From positions 804,962 to 868,961 of the forward strand of contig CAVSAG010000002.1 of the NCBI GenBank assembly GCA_963725905.1: DNA of 64,000 nt, given 5' to 3'. The DNA comes from an uncultured Pseudomonadota bacterium. Lineage in GTDB: Bacteria; Myxococcota_A; Polyangia; Fen-1088. The position numbers and the translations under genes were made by a program. This document shows, piece after piece, positions 3,150-21,614 of this stretch. The notes beneath the pieces are model-generated. The model did no database searches, had not been told where the DNA came from, and worked only from the letters and a program-made list of their open reading frames with translations. Each line of letters opens with the position of its first letter. Position 1 is the first letter of the stretch.

Positions 3150-5612
3150 TCACCGTCGGAGCAAACCTGAACCGTTCGAGATGATGCCCTCCGCCGAGAA
3201 GACGCCCGAGCTCGATTGCCCCCGTCGACGGCGACGGAGCAAGGCGGCGGCCAAGAGAACCGCGAGGGGCGTGAACGCAGGGTGGGATGCCGCCTGGGTG
3301 CCGAGATCGCAGGAGCATCCTGACGAGCCGGTATTCGGGCCTGCGCCTCCGTGGCCGCCCGCGCCCGCGCTGCCGCTCGTTCCAGCGTGGCCCGCCGTTC
3401 CCGCGTTGCCGGTCATTCCCGCGCTGCCGCCCGCGCCGCCTGCCCCAGTGTTGCCGTCCGTTCCGGCGTGACCGCCGGCCCCAGCGTTGCCGTCCGCTCC
3501 GGCGTTACCGCCGGCCCCAGCATTGCCGCCTGTTCCAGCGCGGCCGCTCGCGCCGGCGATGCCGCTCGTCCCGGCGCTTCCGTCCGCGCCGCCGCTGCCG
3601 CTCGTTCCCGCGCCGCCGCCCGCGCCCGCGTGGCCGGCCACCCCGGCGTGGCCGCCCGTCCCGGTGTTACCGCCCGCCCCGGCGTTACCGCCCGCCCCGG
3701 CGTGGCCGCCCGCGCCGGCGTTACCTCCCACGCCCGAGCCCGCGCTTCCGCTCGCGCCGCCGCTGCCGCCCGCGCCACCGTCGGTGGCGACGTTGGTGAG
3801 CGTCAGGATCCAGGTCTCGACGCCGTTGAACATGACGGCGCCGTCGCCCAGGGTCGTCATCACGGGGATCCCGGCTTGAGGGCTGCCGAAAGCGGGGGGC
3901 GTGATGTCGGTCCACTGCACGCCATCCCAGGTCCAGGTGTCCCGCTGTGGAATGCCGTTCTTGTTTTCCCCTCCGAACAGAGCGAGCACGCCGCCCAGGG
4001 ACACCATCGCGGCTTCACTGCGGCCGGACGGGGCCGTGTAGGCCGGCGCCAGCCCCATGAGCTGTGTCCAGGCCGCGCCATCCCAGCTCCACAGCTCGGA
4101 CCTGCCTTGTCCACCGAACATCGCGACGTGATCGCCGCTGGTGGCCACGGCCGCCCCCCAATCCGAGAAGGGGGGATTGGCCGGCGTCACCTGCGTCCAG
4201 GTCGTCCCGTCCCAAGTCCAGGTGTCTCCGACGCTCGCGACAGTCGACGTCAGGCCGCCGAACAGCACCGCCTGACTCCCCAGCGTTCCGAGGGCTGGAT
4301 TCGAGCGCGCGCCCGGGCTGGCGGCGGGCACGAGCTGGGTCCAGGTCGTCCCGTCCCAGCGCCAGGTGTCGGCGAGATACGCGCTCGGCACGTTCGGCGT
4401 CAGGCCACCGAACAGCAGCCCCTGGCCGCCGATGGCGGTCAGCCCGAAACCGCCGCGCGCGGGTGGGCTCCTGGTCGGCAGAAGGCGCGTCCAGGCGGCG
4501 CCGTCGAATTGCCAGGTCTCGAGCGTCTGATCGGCTCCCTCGTCCGAGGTGGCCAGCAGCGCCCGGCCGCCGAGCGTGATCATCTGGCCGGTGGTGCCGT
4601 CGAAATCGCCGGGCGGCGTGGCCGCAACGGCCCGCTCGCTCCAGGTCGTGCTGTCCCAGGTCCAGGTGTCGCCCAACATGCCGCTGCCAGGGGAGACGCC
4701 GTCGTAGCCGCCGAAGACCACCACCTGCGTGCCGAGCGTCGCCATCATGTGCGCGGCGCGCGGCGGCGGGCTGGTGGCCGGCGTGCGCATCGTCCAGGTG
4801 TTGCCATCCCACTCCCAGCTGTCGGCCGCGTAGGCGTACAGCATCAGAGAGCCGCCGAAGAGCACCAGCTTGTCGGCCAGCGGTTGCATCTGGGCCCAGA
4901 AGCGCCCGGACGGTCCGGTGCTGGTCCGGAACGTCCAGTTGCTGCCGTCCCACTCCCAGGTCTCGGCGAGCCCGTAGTAGTTGGCGCCGGCGCCCCCGAA
5001 CATGACGACCTTGTTTCCGAGAGGAGCCATGGCCGGCGACGTGCGCGCCGCCGGTTGCACGGTCGGGGTGCGCTGGGTCCAGATGGTGCCGTCCCACTCC
5101 CAGGTCTCGGCGAGCGGTGTCCCGTTGGGCTTGTCGCCGCCGAACATGACCAGCTTGTTTCCGAGCGGCGCGATGGCGGCGTCCGACCGGGGCGACGGGC
5201 TGATCACCGGCGTGCGTTGCGTCCAGTTGATGCCGTCCCACTCCCAGGTGTCGTTGTACGGGTTGTTGGTCGCCGGCGTGCCGCCGAACAGGACCAGCTT
5301 GTTTCCAAGCGCCGCCATCATCGCGTGCGAGCGGGGCGGCGGGCTCGTGGCCGGTGTCTGGCGCGTCCAGGTCGCGCCGTCCCAGGTCCAGGTGTCGGCG
5401 TGGACGTCGTTGCCGAGCCCGCCGAAGAGCACGACCTTGTTTCCGAGCGTGGCCATCGCGCCGCCCTGGCGCCGAATCAAGAGCGGCACCTCCTGCCAGG
5501 TCGCGACCGCCAGCGCGCCGCGCGTGGTGCTGGTGCCGGGTGAATCGGCGCGACACCCGGTCACGACCCCCCACCCGACCACCGCGACGCCCACCCAACG
5601 GGTCAATTTCAT
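3150..5612 (-). CDS. Kelch/galactose-oxidase-type beta-propeller repeat lipoprotein with Gly-rich spacer and MYXO-CTERM sorting domain
   Basis: About 12 repeats of (TWxWDGxxWTxxTP...LGNKxVLFGG). Signal peptide MKLTRWVGVAVVGWGVVTGC. C-terminus GCSCD...LAVLLAAALLRRRRR matches the MYXO-CTERM pattern. Large opposite-strand ORFs here are shadows. Confidence 0.8.
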   Translation of the reverse strand: MKLTRWVGVAVVGWGVVTGCRADSPGTSTTRGALAVATWQEVPLLIRRQGGAMATLGNKVVLFGGLGNDVHADTWTWDGATWTRQTPATSPPPRSHAMMAALGNKLVLFGGTPATNNPYNDTWEWDGINWTQRTPVISPSPRSDAAIAPLGNKLVMFGGDKPNGTPLAETWEWDGTIWTQRTPTVQPAARTSPAMAPLGNKVVMFGGAGANYYGLAETWEWDGSNWTFRTSTGPSGRFWAQMQPLADKLVLFGGSLMLYAYAADSWEWDGNTWTMRTPATSPPPRAAHMMATLGTQVVVFGGYDGVSPGSGMLGDTWTWDSTTWSERAVAATPPGDFDGTTGQMITLGGRALLATSDEGADQTLETWQFDGAAWTRLLPTRSPPARGGFGLTAIGGQGLLFGGLTPNVPSAYLADTWRWDGTTWTQLVPAASPGARSNPALGTLGSQAVLFGGLTSTVASVGDTWTWDGTTWTQVTPANPPFSDWGAAVATSGDHVAMFGGQGRSELWSWDGAAWTQLMGLAPAYTAPSGRSEAAMVSLGGVLALFGGENKNGIPQRDTWTWDGVQWTDITPPAFGSPQAGIPVMTTLGDGAVMFNGVETWILTLTNVATDGGAGGSGGASGSAGSGVGGNAGAGGHAGAGGNAGAGGNTGTGGHAGVAGHAGAGGGAGTSGSGGADGSAGTSGIAGASGRAGTGGNAGAGGNAGADGNAGAGGHAGTDGNTGAGGAGGSAGMTGNAGTAGHAGTSGSAGAGGHGGAGPNTGSSGCSCDLGTQAASHPAFTPLAVLLAAALLRRRRRGQSSSGVFSAEGIISNGSGLLRR

Positions 5613-5678
5613 GCGGGCAGTATAGGGCGGAGCCAAAAACTATGTGCCGGCGCTGCTCCAACGCGCAATCGTGGCGGC

Positions 5679-5972: not shown

Positions 5973-6981
5973 TCAGAGGCAGGGGACGTCCAGACATATC
6001 TCGATTTGGCAGTCGGCGCTGCACCGCTCAGACAAGCCGCCATACGAGCCGCCATTGTCGGCGCCAAAGTCGCATTGTTCTCCGTCGTCGGCGTCCACCA
6101 CGCCGTCACCACAGTAACGAGCTCTCTGGCAGCTTCCCGTGCAACCGTCGAGGCCGTAGTGGGAGGGGCTCTGACCAGGGTCACATACTTCCGGAGGGTC
6201 GACGATTCCGTCGCCGCAATGCGCGCCAAAAGTACAGCTCGTCGTGCAACCGCCGTAGGTGGCGCCGTTCGGGCCGGGACAGTTGGCTGGTACCGGCACA
6301 GTTCCGGCGCCGCAATCGCACTGCTCGCCTGAGCCGACGATTCCGTCGCCGCAGACGTTGGAGCTCCCGACGTTGCCGCATTTGGCCGTCACGGCACACG
6401 ATCCGACGCATGGCGCGCCGGCTGTCGGGCAGCTCCATCCAACTTCGGCCAGGCAATCGAACGAGCAGCCGTCACCGTTGTTCGAGTTCCCGTCGTCGCA
6501 CTCTTCTGGCGGTTCGACGACGCCGTCGCCGCATTTGGCCGAGCGGACACATGGTTGATTGGCCGTTGGGCAGGCGTACCCGACCTCGATTTGGCACAGC
6601 GACGTGCAGCCGTCGCCCCCCATCCTGTTTCCGTCGTCGCACGCCTCTCCTGGGTCGGGCGCGCCGTTTCCACAGGAGGTGGCGTCAGACGGGCTTCCCC
6701 CACCTCCCGCATTCCCGCCGCCCGCCCCGGCCATTCCTTTGCCGGCCTGGCCGCTGGCGCCCGCGGCTGCCGCTGCCGGCTTGACCGTTGCCGCCCGCCC
6801 CGACCGCGCCCGGCAGCTGCACGCAGAGGTTCGACGCGCAGGTCAGCCCGGCGTTGCAGGTCGAGTTGCCGAAGCAGGGACCGCCCTCAGCGCCGGCCGC
6901 CTTCCCGCTGCTCCCACCACAGCCCGCAAGCGCCAGGGCAGCCACGAACGACCAACCCAAGCACGCGCGAGGCGCTCGCAT
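5973..6981 (-). CDS. lipoprotein with Myxococcus cysteine-rich repeats (CGDGxxxxxEECDDGNxxxGDGCSxxC); apparent frameshift near 6700-6760
   Basis: N-terminal signal and lipobox (MRAPRACLGWSFVAALALAGCGG) in one frame. At least five tandem Cys-rich repeats follow in another frame. The two segments overlap at a GGN-rich tract. Confidence 0.6.
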
Positions 6982-9902: not shown

Positions 9903-10933
<1,031 letters not shown>

Positions 10934-10954: not shown

Positions 10955-12793
10955 TCAGATCGGCAGGAGATGAATCGGCAACGAATCCGGTGCGGCGGCT
11001 TCGTCGAGTGGAACGCCGGCCCCGGCCGTGGGTTCGATCGTGGTGCTGGAAAGGAGCTCGCCCACCTGCTTGGACCCGATGAGCGCGGTGACGCGATCTC
11101 CGACGATGCTCACGCGACTGTCCCAGGGGAGGCCACGCCGAAATCGTTCGCGATCGTAGAGCCGCAGCGGCGCCAGCGCTTCAGGCTCGTGCAGGTTCCA
11201 AAGGGGGCAGGGATCGGCCGGCGTGGATTCGGCCGCCAAGATTCCGTTCACGGCGCGGCGCGCCGCCTCGTTGGCCGCCTCCATCGTGGCGATGTCCGTG
11301 TACGTCCTCACGTAGTCGGAGGCCAAGAAGAGGTTGGCGATGCCGGTCGTCGCCTCGGGTCGGAGCCGCCAGGTGTCGACGTAGTTCACCAGCAACGGCT
11401 CGGCGTTGGTCAGCCGAGAAGTCGCGCGGTTCGTTCTGATGTCGGGATCGAGGTTCGACCCGTAGAGGATGTCGTCGGAGAGGACCTCCGTTCCGCCCAC
11501 ATTGAGGCTCTTTTTGAGCTGGCGCCACACTTCGTCCGCGATCTCCTCACGGGCGCAGTCCTCCGCCTTCTTCCCATTCAGTCCCTCGACGTCCCAGTCC
11601 GAAACGCAAACCGAGAGAATGCCGCCGATCCGTCCGTTCGCGAAGGTCTGGGGCGGGTAGTCCGGCCAGAACTGGGCCTGCGAAACCGAGGTCAGGGCCC
11701 ACGGCGTGTCCATGTAGATCGAATGGCCGTGAACGAGAGGCCGATCCTCCGTCAAATAGAACTGGACTCCGTTCATCCACTCGAGGTTCTCGCTCAGCTC
11801 CGCCAAGCCGTCGAAGCGCGCGTCGGCAGCAACGATGGCCGGCGTCACGAGGGGCACCAGCCGCTCCACCGGCAACGCCGCCACGAAGTAGTCGCCGGTG
11901 ATACGCGTTGGCCTGCCGTTGCAGGATACCACCGCCGCCTGGATGCTTTGACCGCGGCAGTCCAGCGAGACGACCTCGCTGTCGAAGTGATACCGGACCC
12001 CGCGCGCAATGAGGTGGCGATACCAGGGGCTGAGCCAGACCTCGCTCGTCGGCCCGTTGAGTACGCGATCCGCCGTGTCGAAAGGCGTCAGGGCGGACAG
12101 AATCATCTGAACGAAGATGTCCCCGATCGTCTTGGTGCTGGCGCGTTCGGCCTTGGCGGCGACCAGCGAACGGGTGAATCCGTTCGCGAAGAACTTCTGG
12201 TAGCCGAGCGAGTGGGCATCGGCCTGAACGAATTGCCACCAGTCGATCTTCTCGTATTCCGCCAGCCGGCGCTCCTGGCACGACGACACGATCTGAAAGA
12301 CGCGCTCGGCGAAGAATGCCGTTTCGTTGGGCGGAATGTCCATCTGCCCGGCGAGCAGGCCGACCACGAACGTCACAGCCGTACGGAGCTCGCCCGGAGA
12401 CTCGGGGAACCGCGCGGGGTAGAAGACGGGCGCCTGGCCGAAGCGCGCGATGTGAACTTGAGAGGTCGCGACCAGATTGTCCGCGACTGTGCAGTCCCCG
12501 AATGGGATTCGGCGCATGGTATCGATGACGTGCTTGTAGAAGCCCGGGAAGAACCGAAAACCATGCTCGCCAGGCAACCAGGAGCGTACCGACGATTCCG
12601 TCGCGGGCCGCTTCCGTCCGTCCCAGGGTGAGGGCCGCGGCTGCTGCGCGTCGAGGACCTCGAGGCTTCGTGCCTTCCCGCCGGCCAGTGAGCTGCGGTC
12701 GAATACGTCGACGCTGAACCCCCGGTCGATGAGCTCGTGCGCCGCCGTGAGCCCAGCGATCCCACCCCCGAGAATGACGACGCTCTTTCCCAT
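10955..12793 (-). CDS. FAD-dependent oxidoreductase (amine-oxidase/phytoene-desaturase-like Rossmann family) with about 45-aa C-terminal extension
   Basis: N-terminal dinucleotide-binding motif VVILGGGIAGLTAAHEL...AGGKARS. 612 aa. 21-nt gap to the polyprenyl synthetase gene. Confidence 0.8.
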   Translation of the reverse strand: MGKSVVILGGGIAGLTAAHELIDRGFSVDVFDRSSLAGGKARSLEVLDAQQPRPSPWDGRKRPATESSVRSWLPGEHGFRFFPGFYKHVIDTMRRIPFGDCTVADNLVATSQVHIARFGQAPVFYPARFPESPGELRTAVTFVVGLLAGQMDIPPNETAFFAERVFQIVSSCQERRLAEYEKIDWWQFVQADAHSLGYQKFFANGFTRSLVAAKAERASTKTIGDIFVQMILSALTPFDTADRVLNGPTSEVWLSPWYRHLIARGVRYHFDSEVVSLDCRGQSIQAAVVSCNGRPTRITGDYFVAALPVERLVPLVTPAIVAADARFDGLAELSENLEWMNGVQFYLTEDRPLVHGHSIYMDTPWALTSVSQAQFWPDYPPQTFANGRIGGILSVCVSDWDVEGLNGKKAEDCAREEIADEVWRQLKKSLNVGGTEVLSDDILYGSNLDPDIRTNRATSRLTNAEPLLVNYVDTWRLRPEATTGIANLFLASDYVRTYTDIATMEAANEAARRAVNGILAAESTPADPCPLWNLHEPEALAPLRLYDRERFRRGLPWDSRVSIVGDRVTALIGSKQVGELLSSTTIEPTAGAGVPLDEAAAPDSLPIHLLPI

Positions 12794-12808: not shown

Positions 12809-13699
12809 TCAGCTCTTCGGGATCTCGTTATTCACGACATAGAGGTCGTACTCGACCAGATCGTCGACCGTCGAAACCCGCCCGACACCGATGAACTCGT
12901 GGCGATTCATCCAGAGGTAGTTCGCGTGCGCGGTCATGAATTTGGGTGCCACCTGAAGCGCCGCATAGTCTGGAAACTCTCCCCGCAGCGCCCTTTCGTA
13001 TCCTCCTTGGCCCATGTCGAGGAATCCGGTGTTCTCTTCGGTAATCAGCGCGCCGTCGTTGGTCTTCATCGTGGCGCGAACCTGAAGAATGGCCACGCCG
13101 TCTCGGCGGATCGTCAGATAGTCGGTGCCCCGCGGCAGGAAGTGCGCTTGCAGATCGGGTCCGGTGACGCCGCCTCCATCGAGAAAGTAGTTGATGCGTA
13201 GCCCGTCCGGCGTGTCGCCGATGATCTCCGGTGTTTTCGAGACGAACACTTTGACCGAAGCGACGAATTTGAACTCGGGGGTGAACTTGGGGCCGACGTC
13301 CGAGTTCCTGGGCGGCGACCCGGGCTCGGGCACCGCCGGAGCTGGGTCGACCAGACGGAAGCGTGACGTGAACGCCGCCGTCCTGGCCGGCGCCGGCGCT
13401 TGCCGGCCGCTGCAAGTTACGACCGGGACGTACTCGACGAGGTCACCTTCGAGCAGCGGCGGAAAGACCGCGCGAAAGTACTGAACGTCGAGGGAGTAGT
13501 TGCGACCGAGCTCATAGCCCGATATGACGCGCTCCGGCCCGGCCGCGACGCGGTATCGAACGTTCACGACGTTGCCAGCGCTTGCGGGGTTGACCGCGAC
13601 GACGACGGATTGTCCCGTGCGCGCAGCCCCGTCCTCATTGGGACCGGGCGTATCCGGTCCCCCGTACCATATTGTGAGCCCGTCGTTCTCAGCTCGCAA
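12809..13699 (-). CDS. DUF3237-domain protein with about 130-aa N-terminal extension
   Basis: C-terminal half (GLRINYFLDGGGVTGPDL...YLTIRRDGVAILQVRATMKTNDGALITEENTG...YLWMNRHEFIGVGRV...EYDLYVV) fits the DUF3237/UPF0311 beta-barrel consensus. Confidence 0.65.
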   Translation of the reverse strand: MRAENDGLTIWYGGPDTPGPNEDGAARTGQSVVVAVNPASAGNVVNVRYRVAAGPERVISGYELGRNYSLDVQYFRAVFPPLLEGDLVEYVPVVTCSGRQAPAPARTAAFTSRFRLVDPAPAVPEPGSPPRNSDVGPKFTPEFKFVASVKVFVSKTPEIIGDTPDGLRINYFLDGGGVTGPDLQAHFLPRGTDYLTIRRDGVAILQVRATMKTNDGALITEENTGFLDMGQGGYERALRGEFPDYAALQVAPKFMTAHANYLWMNRHEFIGVGRVSTVDDLVEYDLYVVNNEIPKS

Positions 13700-13713: not shown

Positions 13714-14028
13714 CTAGTCTCCGGAGCCGTCAAGACGCATTTCCACGGCTGCCCGCTGTCTGCGCCCCTCAGTCGAATCACCGATCCCCGCTTGCCTCAC
13801 AACAACGATCGTGTCTGGTTCCTTTTCGCTGGGTTTCTCAGCCTTCTTGGCGGCGGCTCTCTTGGCGGCGGCCTTCTTGGCGGCGGCCTTCTTCTCGGCG
13901 GCCTTCTTCTCGGCGGCCTTTTTTTCGGCGGCTTTCTTGATAGCGGCTCTCTTCTTGGCAGCTCTCTTCTTGGCGGACGTCTCGTCGCCGCCTTCGCTCA
14001 GATCTTCATGCCCAACGCTCTCGCCCAT
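13714..14028 (-). CDS. Lys/Ala-rich histone-H1-like low-complexity protein
   Basis: KKAAEKKAAEKKAAEKKAAAKKAAAKRAAAKKAEK repeats; minus-strand codons are AAG/GCC/GAG (good bias) whereas the plus-strand alternative uses rare TTG/TCA; 40 nt downstream of the encapsulin gene. Confidence 0.5.
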   Translation of the reverse strand: MGESVGHEDLSEGGDETSAKKRAAKKRAAIKKAAEKKAAEKKAAEKKAAAKKAAAKRAAAKKAEKPSEKEPDTIVVVRQAGIGDSTEGRRQRAAVEMRLDGSGD

Positions 14029-14068: not shown

Positions 14069-14983
14069 CTACGTATGAAGGACGACGACAGAATCCATTT
14101 CCTTTGCTCGCAAGACGATTCGCTCCGAGACGCGGAAGACGTAGCGCGGTTCGGTGTTGATCTGGAGAAACTTCACCGAGATATCTGCCGCGACGACCAG
14201 CTCTATCGGACTCCCTCCCAGCGAAACCACCACGCCATATCCAGGTGACAGTGCACCGCACCGATAGAGTTGACCGTCCACAAACGGGAGGATGCGGTCG
14301 CGCGGCATGACCAGGCTGCCCGGGACCGGCTCGCAGGCAACCTCGAACAGATCGTTGGAAAGGGCGCACGCATAGGGGCCGAAGTGTCCAGCCGCTTCGA
14401 GCGAGGTTATCGCAGCCACGACGGACCGGACCAGCAGAGGCCCGACGGGCGGCAGCCGAATCTCGCCGCGTAGCCCTATGCGTGCGATGGGTCCCGCGAG
14501 CGGCGCAGCCGGAAGTTGGGGCGGCAGGAGCCCTTCCGTCGCGCCGCCCCCGGTTATTCTTCCGACGGCCCTCAAAGCCGCCGGGGTGTTAGGTGGCCAG
14601 TCGGCCAGCGCAGGCTGTCCGTGAAATATCAGCGCATCCTCTGCGCGGGCAATCAGATTGGCGGCGCGTCTAAACAACCCCAAAGCGGCCGACAAGTCGG
14701 GATCCGAGACTTCGTTCGTTCGCAGATACACCAGCGACGTAATGGTTGTCAGCGCGAGATCTGGATCGCTGTTGATCACGAGCCGTGGAGCCGGGGGGTT
14801 CCCCGCAGCGTCCTGGCCCAACAGAAGGCGGGGCACCGCGACGGTGGTTGGATCCAACGGCCCGTAGATGGGCAGGAACGAAGCGCCCACCCGCGCACGC
14901 TTCGCCTCCTGTGAGACCGTCTGCTGGACTAGGTTCCATTGGTCATCGGACCAGTTCAAATCCGCGGAGTTGCGATCCATCAA
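14069..14983 (-). CDS. encA: Family 1 encapsulin nanocompartment shell protein (EncA/linocin M18-like, HK97 fold)
   Basis: Alignable by eye to M. xanthus EncA and T. maritima encapsulin: LNWSDDQWNLVQQTVSQEAKRARVGASFLPIYGPLD, AEDALIFHG, AGHFGPYACALS, GVVVSLGGSPIELVVAADISVKFL, YVFRVSERIVLRAKEMDSVVVL. Confidence 0.85.
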   Translation of the reverse strand: MMDRNSADLNWSDDQWNLVQQTVSQEAKRARVGASFLPIYGPLDPTTVAVPRLLLGQDAAGNPPAPRLVINSDPDLALTTITSLVYLRTNEVSDPDLSAALGLFRRAANLIARAEDALIFHGQPALADWPPNTPAALRAVGRITGGGATEGLLPPQLPAAPLAGPIARIGLRGEIRLPPVGPLLVRSVVAAITSLEAAGHFGPYACALSNDLFEVACEPVPGSLVMPRDRILPFVDGQLYRCGALSPGYGVVVSLGGSPIELVVAADISVKFLQINTEPRYVFRVSERIVLRAKEMDSVVVLHT

Positions 14984-14999
14984 GTTCCCCCTGGGTCCA

Positions 15000-17900
15000 C
15001 TAACGGTTGATCGGTGGCGATTGTTCCCGCTGTTCCAGTGAATGTACGTCGAGCGATGAAATGCGACCGGAGTCGGCCACGCCGGTCTCGAGCGCGGTCA
15101 GCGTCGCGACCGCGCGCTGTTCGAGCAGGTAGGCGCCCTGACTGCGCGCGATGTCGATGGCCTTGCGCAAGTGGGCCTTGGCCTCCTCGGTCTCCCCGCT
15201 CGCCTGCAGCAGCAGGGCGCTTCGGAGACGGTGGAGCTCGGCGTCGCAGTTGTTCTCGCCGTTGGCTTCGGAGTAGCGGAAGGCGTCTTCGAGGACGCCC
15301 AACGCTTCCAAGGTCAGCCCGGACCTCGCCAGCAGGTCGGCCAGGCCCCAGCGCGCGTGAACGAAGTTCATGTGGGCGCCGCAGCTCTCGTATTCCCGGA
15401 TGCCGATCTCCATTTCGGCGCGGCCCGAGGCGAGCTCGCCCAAGCGAGCGCGGGCCCAACCGCGGTAACACCGGGCGGCGCCGACATAGAGCTGGAACCC
15501 TTCGTCCTGCGCCAGCGCCAGCAGACGGCCCGAGGTTTCGAGCAGGCTGGCGGCGTCTTGGCGCCAGTAGGAGAGCTCGGCCGAGAGACTCAGGTGAACC
15601 GCCGTGCTCGGGGGATGCCCCAACTGTGCGACGAGATCCCGACCCTGCGCGAGGGCGTGAGCGGATTCCTGCGGTCGTCCCTCCAGCGCCAGGCCGATCG
15701 CCTGGATTCCCCACATGACCGTGGTCGACGAGAGCTGAGTGATGCCGACGATGGCCTGCTCCTGCTCCAGCGAGAAGAGACGGCAGCCCTCGTCCGCGTG
15801 GCGAAGCGCCGACGACAGATCGCCCAGATAGAAAAGGGTGAAGACCATGGCGTGCCGGGCCATGACGCCCAGGAGCGGGTTGCCGGACGCGTTGGCCAGC
15901 GCCAACACGCGCTCGGCCACCGAGAGCGCGCGGGTGATTTGCCCGCGGACGAGGTACGTCGACCACAGACCCCAGAGCGCAGGGAGAACGCTCTCGTGAG
16001 CACCGACCTCCTCGGCCAATTGCAGCGCCCGCCGACAGCTGTCCTCGACCTCGTGGGCCGCCCACCCGTTGATGGCCATGAACGCCGGTGCGATCGCGAG
16101 GTTCAATGCGAGCTCCGCGGCTTTGCGCTCGGGCGACGCGGGGGTCAGTTCCGTCAGCCGGAGGGCGCGTTTGAGGTGAGCGATCGCCTCCTGATTGGCG
16201 GAGCGCCCGAGCGCCAGCGCCCCGGCGCGTTGCCATTGCGACGCCGCACCGCCGACATCGCCGCCTTCTTCGAGGTGCGAGGCGAGAAGCTCCGGTCGAG
16301 CAGCCGCCACGTCGGGGAAGCGCTCCCGCAACGTGTCGGCGGTTCGCCGGTGATATTCGCGGCGTTTCGATCGGGCGAGGGACCCATATGCCGCATCCCT
16401 CACCAACGTGTGCTTGAAGGCGTAGTTGACCGGAGAAGACCCCGAGGAGAGCAGGAGGCCCGACGAGAGGAGCCGATCGAGATCGGGCCTCAGCCCCTCG
16501 TCCGAAACCGTCGACACGGCGCTCAGGAGGTCGCCGGAGAATTCGCGCCCAATGACCGATGCGACCTGAGCGATCCCCTTGGCCGTGCCCAGACGGTCGA
16601 GGCGGGCCATCAACCAATCCTGGAGCGTGACCGGCACGGATGCCGTCGCCCCGGCCGGTCGGACAGCCTCCGTGGCGGATCCCGTCTGCTCCCAGTTCGA
16701 GGAGGGCGCGCGTTACCTCCTCGACGAACAGCGGAAGGCCATCGGTCATTTCGTAGATGCGTGAGGCCAGTGCTTCGTCGGCCATCCGACCGGCGACGCC
16801 AGTGACCATTTCAGCCACCTGCTCTCGTCCGAGCGAGGCGACCTTCATCTCCACCACGGTAGCCGGACCGGCCCAGGGTGCTTGGAATTCAGGCCACGCC
16901 GTCAGGCCGACCAGCACGCGAGACAGCGAGCCACGGACAACCATTTCAAGGACTTCGAGTGTCGTCGGATCCGCCCAGTGGAGATCCTCAATCGCCACCA
17001 GCACCGGGCCGTGAGCAGCCAGGCGTCGTAGCCATTCGACGATCGTCTCCAAAAGCAGGCGCCGCTGGCGCTGGGGAGTGATTCCGGCCCACGCCGCGGA
17101 AGCGTCCTGCGGGAGCGAGAGCAGAGCTGCGACAGCCGATATCTGCAAGCGCGACAGCCCGAGATTCGACATCCTCGCGCTCAACTCGGTCGCGACGGTC
17201 GCGACGTTCGCGATGTTCAATTGATCGGTCGTGATGCCGGCCCGCAACCACTGGCGCAGGAGCGAGACGATTGGATGGAGCGGGACGTTCTGATGCAGCG
17301 GAGAGCAATAGCCCTGTAGGACCGGCGCGTCACCCATCGTGACGTGGTTCTTGAAGACCTCGATGAGGCGCGATTTCCCAACGCCGGGCTCTCCGCGGAG
17401 GATGAAGACGGGACTCGCTCCGCTCTGCGCTGCTTGCCAGAAGTCGAGAAGGGTTGCCGTCTCCTCTTCCCGACCGACGAACGGCGTCAACCCAGATTCC
17501 CGGGCTGCCTCCAGCCTGGTCTGGGCGGCGGTCTCCCCGGTCACCAGATGAAGCTGGGTAGGGACCACACCCGAAAGGATCTTGTCGCCGGCGGGGCTGA
17601 AATGGAAGTATCCGGCCGCGAGCCGCCGTGTGCTCTCCGTGATCAACACCTGATTCGGTTGGGCCTCCGTTTGAACGCGCGCCGCGAGGTTCGGGGCCTC
17701 GCCGAACGCCAGCGTTTGTTCTCCTGCGCCGGGGCCAGTCGCTCCAATGACCACCAGCCCGGTGTGAATCCCGACCCGACAGGCGAGCTTGCTATTCCCA
17801 CCAACGAGGTTGGACACGCGACGGACGGTCTCGATGCCCGCGCAAATCGCTCTCCGGGCGTCGTCACCGTGCGCTTCCGGAAAGCCAAAATAGACCAGGA

Positions 17901-18153
17901 TCCCATCACCGAGGTACTGCGCGATATAGCCCCCGAAGGGCCGAATTGCCTCCGCGCAAGCCGTCTGATAGTCGCGGATGACGTCGCTGAATTCCTCGGG
18001 ATCGAGTTGGCGCGATAGCGCCATCGATCCGACGAGGTCGCAAAAGAAAACCGTCAAGTGACGGCGCTCGGACTCGCGTGACAACCGAGCACCACAGGCC
18101 CGGCACACACCACCACCGCCGGGGTTATCGCTGTTGCAGTTAGGGCAGAGCAC
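15000..18153 (-). CDS. zinc-ribbon / class III adenylate-guanylate cyclase / AAA ATPase / TPR signalling protein; frameshifted near 16640-16700 in this sequence
   Basis: N-terminus CPNCNSDNP...CRAC zinc ribbon. Cyclase homology domain HLTVFFCDLVGSMALS. P-loop GEPGVGKSRL. Conserved PVTLQDWLMARLDRLGTAKGIAQVASVIGREF plus TPR region in the other frame (ORF 15000..16637). Confidence 0.75.
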
Positions 18154-18803: not shown

Positions 18804-20213
18804 CTACGGTTCGTTTGCGCCCTTGCCGCCGCCCGAAGCAGCCCCGCCCGACAGCCGCTTGTCGAGCTCCTTGAACCGCTCCGCCAGCGCCACGACGAAC
18901 AGGCCGAAGGAGGTGTGCAGGCCCAGGTTCTCCTCGAGGAGCTGGCGCGGGACGACCTTGACCAGGACCTCGTCGACGGCCTCCACGGTGGCGGTGCGGA
19001 CGCCGCCCGAGAGGACGGCCGTCTCGCCGAAGACCGAGTTGGGGCCGAGCTCGCGCAGCACCACCTTCTGGCCGTCGACGGTCTTGTAGGCGACACAGGT
19101 GCCGCGGACGATGATGTAGGCGCAGTCGCCCGGGTCGCCCTCCGCGACGATGCGGTCGCCGGGCGGGAAGATCTCCGCGCTCAGCGGAAAGCCGCGCATG
19201 GTCGTCTCGATGTCCTTCTTGCATCTCGTCGACCGTCTGGTAGCGGTCGCTTCGGATCGCGCGCCATCGCCCGCTTGACGATCCGGCACAGGCCGATGGG
19301 CAGCGGCGCGGTCGGATCGCCGGGCGGGAAGGTCACCACGCAGGCGGTCGCCTTGTCGAGGCAGGTGGCGAGATCGTCGGAGTCGAACGGCGGGACGGCG
19401 GTCAGGATGTTGAAGAGGACGGCGCCCAGGCCGAACACGTCGGTGCGCTGCGTCGAACTGGTCGCGCGCGCCGATCGCCTGCTCGGGCGACATGAACGAC
19501 GGCGTGCCGCACGGGCCGCCGCCCGCGTCGAGGTTGGCTTCGCCGGCGACCACCAGCAGCGGCAGCTCGTTCGGCAGCGCCCGGGTCGGCCCCACGATCG
19601 CCAGCCCCCAGTCGACCAGATAGACCTGCCCGAACGGCCCGACCAGGATGTTCCCCGGCTTGATGTCGCAGTGGAGGACGCCGCGGCTGTGGGCGAAGGC
19701 GACCGCCTCGCAGACCTTGAGAAAGGCGGCCATCATGTCGCTGAGCGTCTCGGAGAAGCCGGCCTGTCGACCCGCGCGGGCGATCCAGTCGGCCAGCGTG
19801 TCGCCCTCGATCCGCTTCATCGTGAAGTAGCGGTTCCCGGAGCGGTCGGTCCCGATCTCGTAGACGGGCGCGATGTTGGGGTGATCGAGCTGGGCGGTGA
19901 TCTGCGCCTCGCGCACGAACCGCTGCACCTCGCGCGGCCGGCGGGCGAGATCGGGCGCCAGCACCTTCATCGCCGCGATCCGCAGGAGGCCCAGATCGCG
20001 GACGGCGTGGACCGAGCCCATCCCGCCGGCGCTGATCGGCGAGAGGTACTGATACCGATCGGGCACGCTCTGTTGCGCAGAGGCGTCGGCGACGGCTCCG
20101 GGGGACGGGGCGGCGCCCGCCTCTCCGCGAACCCTGGTCACCTGATCGCCGCTGATGGTCTGCCTCCCACGCGAGCCTGTCCGCAGTCGACCACATCTGT
20201 CGGTTGGGCGCAA
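18804..20213 (-). CDS. Ser/Thr protein kinase fused to a C-terminal cyclic-nucleotide-binding domain; two compensating frameshifts (kinase C-lobe lies in ORF 19181..19438)
   Basis: YQYLSPISAGGMGSVHAVRD...HCDIKPGNILV...DWGLA...GTPSFMSPEQ. Then GLGAVLFNILTAVPPFDSDD...RIVKRAMARDPKRPL in the other frame. Then cNMP-binding FGETAVLSGGVRTATVEAVDEVL. Confidence 0.75.
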   Translation of the reverse strand: MRPTDRCGRLRTGSRGRQTISGDQVTRVRGEAGAAPSPGAVADASAQQSVPDRYQYLSPISAGGMGSVHAVRDLGLLRIAAMKVLAPDLARRPREVQRFVREAQITAQLDHPNIAPVYEIGTDRSGNRYFTMKRIEGDTLADWIARAGRQAGFSETLSDMMAAFLKVCEAVAFAHSRGVLHCDIKPGNILVGPFGQVYLVDWGLAIVGPTRALPNELPLLVVAGEANLDAGGGPCGTPSFMSPEQAIGARDQFDAAHRRVRPGRRPLQHPDRRPAVRLRRSRHLPRQGDRLRGDLPARRSDRAAAHRPVPDRQAGDGARSEATATRRSTRCKKDIETTMRGFPLSAEIFPPGDRIVAEGDPGDCAYIIVRGTCVAYKTVDGQKVVLRELGPNSVFGETAVLSGGVRTATVEAVDEVLVKVVPRQLLEENLGLHTSFGLFVVALAERFKELDKRLSGGAASGGGKGANEP

Positions 20214-20267: not shown

Positions 20268-21614
20268 ATGGGGACGCGCGGGCAGGACACCACGACGCCC
20301 AACACCGCGCCGGTGGGGGCCGGCGGCGGCGAGCGGAGCATCGCCATCCGCTGGGTCTTCCCCACCGACGGCAACCTCACCCGTCTCGTTCCGGGGTCGA
20401 CGACGTTCGGGCGCGATCCCGACTGCACGGTTCCGCTCCCCAGCTCCTCCGTATCCCGTCGCCACGCCGAGATTCGCTGGACGCCGGGCGGAACGCCTCT
20501 CCTGCTCGACCTCAACAGCACCAACCACGTCTTCGTCAACGGGCAGGAGGTCAAGCACGCCAACCTCGAGCCCGGGGACGTCCTGCGCCTGGGAGATCGG
20601 GTGGGGATCGTCGTGGCGCTGACGGGGGAGGGCGCCGAGCCGTGGAGCTTTCGCGAGCTGACGGCGGGCTACTGGGGCGGCCCGGCGCTGCAGGCGGCGC
20701 TGGCGCCGGCCAGGCTGGTGGCCGGCACCGACCTGCCGATCATCATCCAGGGGGCGACCGGCTCGGGCAAGGAGGGGGCGGCGCGCGCCATTCACGCCTG
20801 GAGCCGGCGCTCGGGGCCGTTCGTGGCGATCAACTGCGCCGCGCTCCCGGAGACGCTGGCCGAGGCGGAGCTGTTCGGCTACCGCAAGGGGGCCTTCACC
20901 GGCGCCGACCGCGCCAGCCCGGGGTACCTGCGCGCGGCGGAGGGGGGGACGCTGTTCCTCGACGAGATCTCCGAGCTGTCGCTGCCGATCCAGGCCAAGC
21001 TGCTCCGCGCCGTCGAACAGCGCGAGCTCACGCCGCTCGGTGAGTCGACGCCGGTCGGGCTCGACGTGCGCCTGCTGGCGGCGACCCAGGCGCCGTTGCG
21101 CCAGGCGGTGAACGACAAGCGCTTTCGCGGCGATCTGCTGGCGCGGCTCGATGGCCTGACCGTCGCGCTCCCTTCGCTGCGTGATCGCGCCGACGAGATC
21201 CCGGCGCTGTTCCGCAAGATCGTCGAGATTCACGGCGGGCGATCGCTGCCGCCGCGGCTCGATCCGACCTTCGTCGAGGAGCTGTGCGTTCGCGACTGGC
21301 CGTTCAATGTCCGCGAGCTGGCGCTGCTGGCGCGCAAGCTGCTCGCGCTCTACCCGGACGGCGCGCTGCTCGACGGCAGCGCGCTCGGTGAACGGACGAT
21401 CGGCGAGGTCGGCGCCGCGGACCAGACGCGCCAGACGGCGGATATGCCGCCGCCCGACAACGAAGCCTTTGTCGCGGCGCTGCGGGCCCAGAACGGCAAC
21501 GTCAAGCAGACGGCGGAGGCGCTGGGGATCAGCCGTGGCCGCGCCTACCGGATGATGGAGAAGATCGACTCGCTCGATCTGGCGGCGCTCCGCCGGCGCG
21601 ACAATCCGGGCTGA
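20268..21614 (+). CDS. sigma-54-dependent Fis-family transcriptional activator with N-terminal FHA domain
   Basis: FHA (TFGRDPDCTVPLPSSSVSRRHAEIRW), AAA+ sigma54-interaction (IQGATGSGKEGAARAIH...GAFTGA...ESELFGH-like), C-terminal HTH (NGNVKQTAEALGISRGRAYRMMEK). Confidence 0.85.
   Translation: MGTRGQDTTTPNTAPVGAGGGERSIAIRWVFPTDGNLTRLVPGSTTFGRDPDCTVPLPSSSVSRRHAEIRWTPGGTPLLLDLNSTNHVFVNGQEVKHANLEPGDVLRLGDRVGIVVALTGEGAEPWSFRELTAGYWGGPALQAALAPARLVAGTDLPIIIQGATGSGKEGAARAIHAWSRRSGPFVAINCAALPETLAEAELFGYRKGAFTGADRASPGYLRAAEGGTLFLDEISELSLPIQAKLLRAVEQRELTPLGESTPVGLDVRLLAATQAPLRQAVNDKRFRGDLLARLDGLTVALPSLRDRADEIPALFRKIVEIHGGRSLPPRLDPTFVEELCVRDWPFNVRELALLARKLLALYPDGALLDGSALGERTIGEVGAADQTRQTADMPPPDNEAFVAALRAQNGNVKQTAEALGISRGRAYRMMEKIDSLDLAALRRRDNPG

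Follow-up and report, generated by a model that had tools for sequence, protein, structure and literature searches.

How an enzyme encoded next to an encapsulin shell gene might find its way into the shell is the question raised by a stretch of 64,000 nucleotides (the window) of contig CAVSAG010000002.1, from an uncultured Pseudomonadota bacterium (GenBank assembly GCA_963725905.1; GTDB lineage Myxococcota_A, Polyangia, Fen-1088). Two genes downstream of a shell gene and on the same strand (three if a small Lys/Ala-rich open reading frame, ORF, is counted), the window encodes an oxidoreductase dependent on flavin adenine dinucleotide (FAD), hereafter OXR, which continues beyond its catalytic domain. 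An earlier note on this DNA had proposed that this C-terminal extension is an encapsulin targeting peptide. We conclude that the extension is likely a tether specific to the encapsulin operon, ending in a peptide that docks onto a partner in trans. With clearly less confidence, a little short of an even chance, we propose that this partner is the shell itself, whose lumen the terminal peptide would bind for cargo loading.

The extension of the oxidoreductase and its terminal motif

Pfam places OXR in the FAD amine-oxidase superfamily (Amino_oxidase, E-value 9e-18, and NAD_binding_8). We built an AlphaFold2 (AF2) model of the protein from 117 homologs, with a mean predicted local distance difference test (pLDDT) of 88.6. 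In a Foldseek search of the PDB, its top match was rice phytoene desaturase (5MOG), with a target-normalised template modelling (TM) score of 0.81. The block-mean pLDDT of the core is at least 76, apart from values of 56-61 in one loop (residues 51-70, approximately). This confident core stops near residue 557, at the sequence GLPWD, whose tryptophan (W557) is invariant across the 117 homologs.

The C-terminus of OXR, translated from the ORF on the minus strand (10955-12793), reads ...VTALIGSKQVGELLSSTTIEPTAGAGVPLDEAAAPDSLPIHLLPI before the stop codon. About 54 residues (559-612; positions 10958-11119 of the window) follow the core, so that the extension described in the earlier note is real, but slightly longer than the 45 or so residues it had been given. 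AF2 places helices at residues 559-573 and 576-581 with low confidence (block-mean pLDDT of about 55-66). Among homologs that are not fused to the polyprenyl diphosphate synthase (PPS) encoded next to OXR, this post-core helix shows the consensus A..AL.LA and nothing more. Residues 583-612 have a pLDDT below 50 and are predicted to be disordered. Ala, Gly and Pro make up 40% of the final 30 residues, against 23% of the core, with a net charge of -4; the tail is thus Gly/Ala/Pro-rich and linker-like, as had been noted. Its spacer differs in length and sequence among homologs, and the whole tails of unfused proteins measure 27-146 aa (amino acids), with a median of 86 aa. A search for close relatives using the tail by itself gave no scorable matches.

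At the extreme C-terminus, the family shows the consensus G-[VIL]-R-I-[VL]-P-Φ (Φ, hydrophobic residue). The pattern x-[R/H]-Φ-x was present within the last 14 aa of 99 of the 117 unfused homologs, while shuffled tails gave 10.5 on average and 20 at most; the tail is therefore more than chance would produce. Two classes of motif can be distinguished: (G/R)-[VIL]-R-I-[VL]-P-[L/E] (class 1) and AAxARxSSDxGLRRLRIV (class 2). The window sequence PIHLLPI belongs to class 1, with His replacing Arg. Substitutes for this Arg are also found in near-identical variants from distant homologs, namely His in Armatimonas (L002, GRVHILPL), Trp in P0020 (GVWIVPR) and Tyr in P0037 (GIYIVPR). The codons used for the Arg, Ile and Val of the motif vary, as does the distance from the motif to the stop codon (1-9 codons), which shows selection at the amino-acid level. 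The same variation rules out that the motif is caused by a ribosome-binding site, or by some other signal in the DNA that would serve the PPS gene further downstream.

The sequence LIGSK, which had been likened to the LxIGSLK motif of known targeting peptides, has to be abandoned as a GSL-like core, since it lies within the predicted post-core helix and its G-S is not conserved among homologs. We also considered that the motif might fold back onto its own enzyme. The AF2 model argues against this, as it keeps residues 583-612 disordered, and a motif left unbound by its own enzyme supports docking in trans. One homolog that seemed to lack the motif (P0050) was rejected as such: its nanopore contig has an in-frame stop, after which the sequence continues to ...SSDAGLRRLRIVRSGP and a second stop.

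The shell gene and the distribution of the extension

The shell protein matches the Pfam family Linocin_M18 (PF04454) with 78.2 bits for a cutoff of 24.3. It is nevertheless divergent, its score with the NCBIfam model encap_f1 (92.2 bits) falling under the cutoff of 100. Among PDB sequences, its best match is EncA of Myxococcus xanthus (E-value 6e-15). The AF2 model has a mean pLDDT of 94.7 and an N-terminal helix at residues 12-29, which is highly conserved over the clade. Each of the 50 PDB matches listed by Foldseek is a Family 1 encapsulin or an engineered form of one, EncA being the best (E-value 2e-21, target-normalised TM score of about 0.8). As modelled, the shell is of Family 1 fold.

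Genome and metagenome scans yielded 160 related loci, to which homolog look-ups added 7 with DNA and 3 from gene calls alone. The proteins of the window operon were searched against every ORF of the related loci. Tallies of tails and shells were made after frameshifted entries and anchor artefacts had been dropped, and the counts of fused and long-tailed homologs are restricted to loci with enough flanking DNA. The shell gene adjoins all of the OXR homologs fused to PPS (59 out of 59 loci) and 8 out of 9 unfused long-tailed homologs, in addition to that of the window. About 26 homologs are tail-less (Paenibacillus, Bryobacteraceae, Bacteroidota), and none of them lies beside a gene for the shell, the DUF3237 protein of the operon or PPS. 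These shell-less proteins end 0-38 residues past GLPW, in agreement with the earlier statement that homologs stop shortly after the core. The tail is therefore lineage-specific, being confined to shell-linked homologs with one exception (L086), which is considered below. The tail is found together with the PPS gene just as strictly as with the shell gene.

The arrangement of shell and OXR genes is kept in more than 70 loci. The operon was found in Polyangia, Alphaproteobacteria (Bradyrhizobium, Methylocapsa, Roseiarcus), Betaproteobacteria, Actinomycetota, Gemmatimonadota, Acidobacteriota, Armatimonadota and Nitrospirales, and also in Pseudonocardiaceae and Geodermatophilaceae, among others.

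In the place of the tail, one set of shell-less homologs, nearly all of them from metagenome-assembled genomes of Bacteroidota, has a hydrophobic/amphipathic helix of the form PWW[LV]KLI...FKK (PWW-type endings in L038, L043, L045, L047, L048, L050, L058, L064, L070, L073, L075, L077 and L080). This helix is probably a membrane anchor, and its position suggests that a protein shell has taken over from the membrane as the site of a lipophilic reaction.

One shell lineage departs from the others in several respects. In L167 (4876-8933), the shell protein has 466 aa; it contains internal insertions and is extended at its C-terminus by a Lys/Glu-rich coiled coil. The shell gene is preceded by an additional ORF of about 210 aa, which has a homolog in L166 (3794-4435). 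The tail of the L167 oxidoreductase ends in ...LPSLEAVDPDDGTARAPAAATPTS, without the R-I-V motif.

Natural fusions of the oxidoreductase to the synthase

In most members of the system, OXR and PPS form a single protein (OXR::PPS) of about 985 aa (loci L007-L053 and L088-L163), for example in Bradyrhizobium (L041, from sp. STM 3557, and L042) and in Pseudonocardiaceae (L014). In a neighbour-joining tree, the big fused clade is a single group nested among unfused lineages. P0007, P0012 and P0014 are separate fusions; P0007 and P0012/P0014 are placed near the window lineage and have the same operon, without a clean motif.

The linker of the fused proteins keeps a post-core helix of about 45 aa (DDSLMQVAAHAIRGASPLLEQARPLLEQVAPF...), with a conservation equal to that of the catalytic domains. 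As this helix is more conserved in fused proteins, function may have shifted within the linker. The big fused clade has no terminal motif and displays a weak mid-linker EVRTVDP alone. In the window, the end of the tail, its stop codon and the N-terminus of PPS (APDSLPIHLLPI, stop, ...TTPFKEQLARYRAMV) are colinear with the linker of P0012, APSSLPLQSPIAAPTADFKSRLEGYRALV. By the shared post-core helix, this colinearity and the nesting of the fused clade, the tail is homologous to the natural interdomain linker of OXR::PPS.

In the fused systems, the C-terminus of the DUF3237 protein (VxVGGR) was also considered as a targeting peptide. It was rejected: we judged it to be the last strand and turn of the domain, and it is missing in the separate fusions L081 and L083.

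Candidate partners of the terminal peptide

In the reading that we favour, the working part of the tether (residues 559-612) would be its last seven residues, PIHLLPI. This peptide would bind the luminal face of an encapsulin protomer while the shell assembles, in a groove beside the N-terminal helix of the shell by analogy with Family 1. The 65-kDa flavoenzyme would then hang inside the shell on a flexible leash, and the encapsulated enzyme may act on long-chain isoprenoids provided by the co-encoded synthase. The motif of the window, with no arginine, would still be functional. Cargo proteins of Family 1 consist of a folded enzyme, a disordered Ala/Pro-rich linker and a short conserved C-terminal peptide (PMC11126975). 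OXR and its tail match this architecture, which, together with the presence of a shell gene in the operon, supports loading into the shell. The most divergent shell lineage (L167, 466 aa) also has a divergent tail end, which counts for the same reading, as do the conserved N-terminal helix that the shell model retains and the spacing of hydrophobic residues that the motif shares with Family 1 targeting peptides. What stands of the earlier proposal of an encapsulin targeting peptide is thus the operon context, the shell-restricted disordered tail and the conserved end motif; the LIGSK motif, the GSL core and the contacts known from EncA do not.

Several observations weigh against the shell as the partner. 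Unlike the targeting peptides of Family 1 (LxxGSL[K/R], LTVGSLR), the motif has no Gly-Ser-Leu core. In solved complexes, the arginine of the targeting peptide is held by D39, D214 and Y217 of EncA. These residues are not conserved in the shell clade, where every member has Pro in place of D39 and where equivalents of D214 and Y217 are found in the window shell only. Comparing fused and unfused systems, we detected no covariation between the shell residues at these three positions and the presence of the motif. Moreover, at least three fused lineages (the big fused clade, P0007 and P0012/P0014) keep the shell gene with the motif lost or decayed, and a few unfused systems have likewise retained the shell gene without the motif. 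Among the latter, P0017 was confirmed by its locus, and the contig of P0104 is equal in length to that of a shell homolog. Conversely, L086 (7001-9001) is unfused and its tail, about 110 aa long, ends in ...RGKVRIVSR, with no gene for the shell, the DUF3237 protein or PPS within 7 kb upstream and 0.5 kb downstream; this is the sole exception found. In the unfused loci, none of the other proteins bears the terminal motif, and when 1.84 billion representative proteins were searched with a profile, the 14 matches returned were all C-terminal fragments of this oxidoreductase. The motif being confined to this enzyme, nothing indicates a portable signal. Finally, the window motif itself has no arginine, in a tail of net charge -4. 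The missing GSL core and the loss of the motif on fusion leave room for docking onto the synthase.

The latter explanation, which we regard as unlikely but deserving serious attention, holds that the tail is an unfused version of the OXR-PPS linker, whose terminal peptide docks on PPS for the hand-over of substrate. Loading into the shell, if any, would then depend on some other feature, for instance the synthase, the DUF3237 protein or the post-core helix. It best accounts for the loss of the motif on fusion, as the motif so frequent at unfused termini is gone in every fusion examined. The colinearity of the window sequences with the P0012 linker agrees with it, as does the co-occurrence of PPS with the tail, which is no less strict than that of the shell. 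In addition, the lengths of the tails overlap those of the fused linkers (about 60-105 aa, as read from alignments), and the stop codon of OXR and the start codon of PPS often overlap, suggesting a stoichiometric pair. To our knowledge, however, there is no precedent for a polyprenyl synthase that recognises a C-terminal peptide. In the fused proteins, the post-core helix gains conservation, which looks like a function that moves rather than a bond that replaces the peptide, and the mid-linker E-V-R-T-V-D-P of the fused clade recalls some of the terminal variants, for example NVRFVEP. Moreover, cargo of Family 1 is canonically loaded by means of a C-terminal peptide on a disordered leash (PMC11126975, PMC7925596).

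It is improbable that the window copy is a decaying relic, that is, a functionless version, in a degenerating operon, of a family motif that works elsewhere. Such a relic would fit the replacement of Arg by His, the negative charge of the tail, the frameshift in the neighbouring PPS gene and the similarity to P0012, where the corresponding sequence is a fusion linker with a decayed motif. Nevertheless, the window keeps the Φ-x-Φ-Φ-P-Φ pattern, and the distant L002, P0020 and P0037 likewise have another residue (His, Trp or Tyr) where the consensus has Arg. The ORFs of the shell, the DUF3237 protein and OXR are all intact. As for the PPS gene, comparison with intact orthologs (tblastn) shows that homology switches frame and runs on to ...SYAVERDV and the stop codon; the gene contains either an assembly error or the frameshift of a recent pseudogene. 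An error in the assembly may be involved because the contig of the closest relative encodes an intact PPS of 351 aa, together with an OXR of 612 aa.

Lastly, we think it very improbable that the peptide adds as a β-strand onto the N-domain of the DUF3237 protein (as an adaptor) or drives oligomerisation of OXR: the conservation of this domain throughout the systems, the alternating Φ-R-Φ-Φ, which would suit β-augmentation, and the unbound peptide of the AF2 monomer are consistent with it, but the domain is equally conserved in fused systems devoid of the motif, and no covariation was found.

Genes of the operon and its surroundings

The shell and OXR genes belong to a co-directional cluster on the minus strand, in the order cyclase/AAA_16 regulator, shell, small ORF, DUF3237 protein, OXR and PPS (Table 1). 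The cyclase/AAA_16 regulator was found in most of the related loci.

Table 1. Features of the encapsulin operon and subdivisions of the oxidoreductase (positions in the window)
Feature	Position	Strand	Basis
Adenylate/guanylate cyclase and AAA_16 regulator, conserved first gene of the cluster	14980..18153	-	Pfam
Family-1-type encapsulin shell, 303 aa from ATG	14069..14980	-	Pfam, NCBIfam, AF2, Foldseek
Small Lys/Ala-repeat ORF, 104 aa, membership of the system uncertain	13714..14028	-	Sequence
DUF3237 protein	12809..13699	-	Pfam DUF3237 at residues 141-289
OXR, FAD-dependent oxidoreductase with phytoene-desaturase-like fold	10955..12793	-	ORF of 612 aa and translation
OXR catalytic core, residues 1-558, terminated by the conserved GLPWD	11120..12793	-	AF2
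OXR post-core amphipathic helix, residues 559-581, SRVSIVGDRVTALIGSKQVGELL, includes LIGSK	11051..11119	-	AF2
OXR disordered Ala/Gly/Pro/acidic spacer, residues 582-605	10979..11050	-	AF2 and composition
OXR terminal candidate docking motif PIHLLPI, residues 606-612	10958..10978	-	Degenerate family consensus
Polyprenyl diphosphate synthase (PPS), frameshifted near 10157-10160	9906..10933	-	Pfam polyprenyl_synt, E-value 3e-59

Ahead of its Pfam domain, the DUF3237 protein has a Pro-rich linker and a β-rich N-domain of about 110 aa (GLxxWYGxxDxPxP ... VxVxYRV); fused and unfused systems alike conserve both of them. This N-domain might serve as an adaptor or bind the shell.

The small ORF encodes (A/E)KKAA repeats, with AAGGGAG preceding its ATG, and gave weak histone-H1-like matches in NCBIfam. 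A small ORF occupies the same slot in the contig of the closest relative (P0123, 80 aa) and in the P0007 locus (67 aa), and several shell orthologs have Lys/Arg-rich C-terminal extensions instead.

Next to the cluster, the window encodes a Ser/Thr kinase with a domain binding cyclic nucleotide monophosphates (cNMP; 18804-20213) and an FHA-sigma54 activator (20268-21614). These signalling genes and the cyclase/AAA_16 gene recur beside the operon in related loci, which may mean that cyclic nucleotides control the shell operon. On the other side of the operon, the minus strand encodes a protein with multiple Kelch repeats (3150-5636, 828 aa) and a Cys-rich DUF4215 repeat protein (5973-6734).

A candidate isoprenoid nanocompartment

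We class the feature as a shell system of Family 1 type whose cargo set is undescribed and whose candidate loading motif departs from the canonical one. Within the literature that we could search, no paper was found to pair an encapsulin with this flavoenzyme, the DUF3237 protein and a polyprenyl synthase. We tentatively suggest, as a possibility that we favour somewhat less than shell docking alone, a system undescribed so far and spread over many phyla, in which a Family-1-type shell loads the flavoenzyme through a non-GSL motif (Φ-R-Φ-Φ-P-Φ) and the synthase through fusion or association, forming a nanocompartment dedicated to the chemistry of long-chain isoprenoids. If the tail is a loading signal, Family 1 would gain a new class of cargo, a desaturase-like flavoenzyme with a polyprenyl synthase, as well as a targeting motif of a new type. 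Until now, terpenoid enzymes have been linked to Family 2 shells only (2-methylisoborneol, geosmin).

Comparison with known systems

The window system can be compared with the natural OXR::PPS fusions. These share with the window the same oxidoreductase, the post-core helix, a flexible spacer and the neighbouring genes. In the window, however, OXR and PPS are distinct polypeptides and a free C-terminal motif closes the tail, while the helical segment of the fusions is longer and highly conserved.

Among characterised enzymes, OXR has the fold of plant-type phytoene desaturase (5MOG, with the TM score given above) and of CrtI, CrtD and HpnE. Like these relatives, it has an N-terminal FAD-binding βαβ unit, and its predicted substrate is probably a long-chain isoprenoid. 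It differs from the desaturase-type enzymes by an identity of merely about 16%, and it scores far under the NCBIfam cutoffs of the models for HpnE, zeta-carotene desaturase, phytoene desaturase and CrtD. The non-encapsulated relatives of OXR found in our locus scans have no such tail.

Isoprenoid enzymes have been associated with Family 2 encapsulins. Terpene-cyclase shells of Family 2B have been described for 2-methylisoborneol (PMC11550324) and geosmin (bioRxiv 10.64898/2026.07.21.739788), polyprenyl transferases are known as Family 2 cargo (PMC8346489), and a 2025 review lists terpene synthases for Family 2 shells only. The window system resembles them by its isoprenoid enzymes alongside a protein shell and by a candidate cargo with a long disordered terminal region. 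The top NCBIfam model for the window PPS is indeed that of the family 2 encapsulin cargo polyprenyl transferase (f2_encap_cargo4), although its 177 bits are far under the cutoff of 450. Unlike Family 2 shells, that of the window has an N-terminal helix and matches Linocin_M18 and EncA, with hits to Family 1 models only; neither Pfam nor the AF2 model gives it a cNMP-binding insertion. The extension also differs from those of Family 2 cargo: it is C-terminal, it is carried by a flavoenzyme and it ends in a short motif, with no long N-terminal targeting domain.

The known cargo proteins of Family 1 encapsulins are mostly involved in iron storage or in the handling of peroxide. The 2021 census of encapsulins contains 90 Family 1 systems to which no cargo has been assigned (PMC8346489). 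It includes a Family 1 shell of Bradyrhizobium jicamae, classified as Minor and cargo-unassigned, whose identity with the gene of L042 could not be confirmed. The tail differs from Family 1 targeting peptides by the position of the basic residue, which lies between the hydrophobic residues (Φ-R-Φ-Φ) and not behind them, by an unusually long linker (the median being that of the unfused tails given above) and by a motif that is dispensable once the cargo is fused to the synthase. The likeness to the targeting peptides of the Thermotoga maritima Flp protein (...GGDLGIRKL) and of M. xanthus EncB, EncC and EncD (LTVGSLR(R)) lies in an operon with a shell of Family 1 fold and in a short conserved sequence at the extreme C-terminus, after a variable and disordered Ala/Pro-rich linker. 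As in these cargo proteins, basic residues are nearby and the extension is missing in non-encapsulated homologs. Moreover, the spacing Φ-x-Φ-x-x-Φ is common to V-R-I-V-P-L, to the I-H-L-L-P-I of the window and to LTVGSL and LGIRKL of Family 1.

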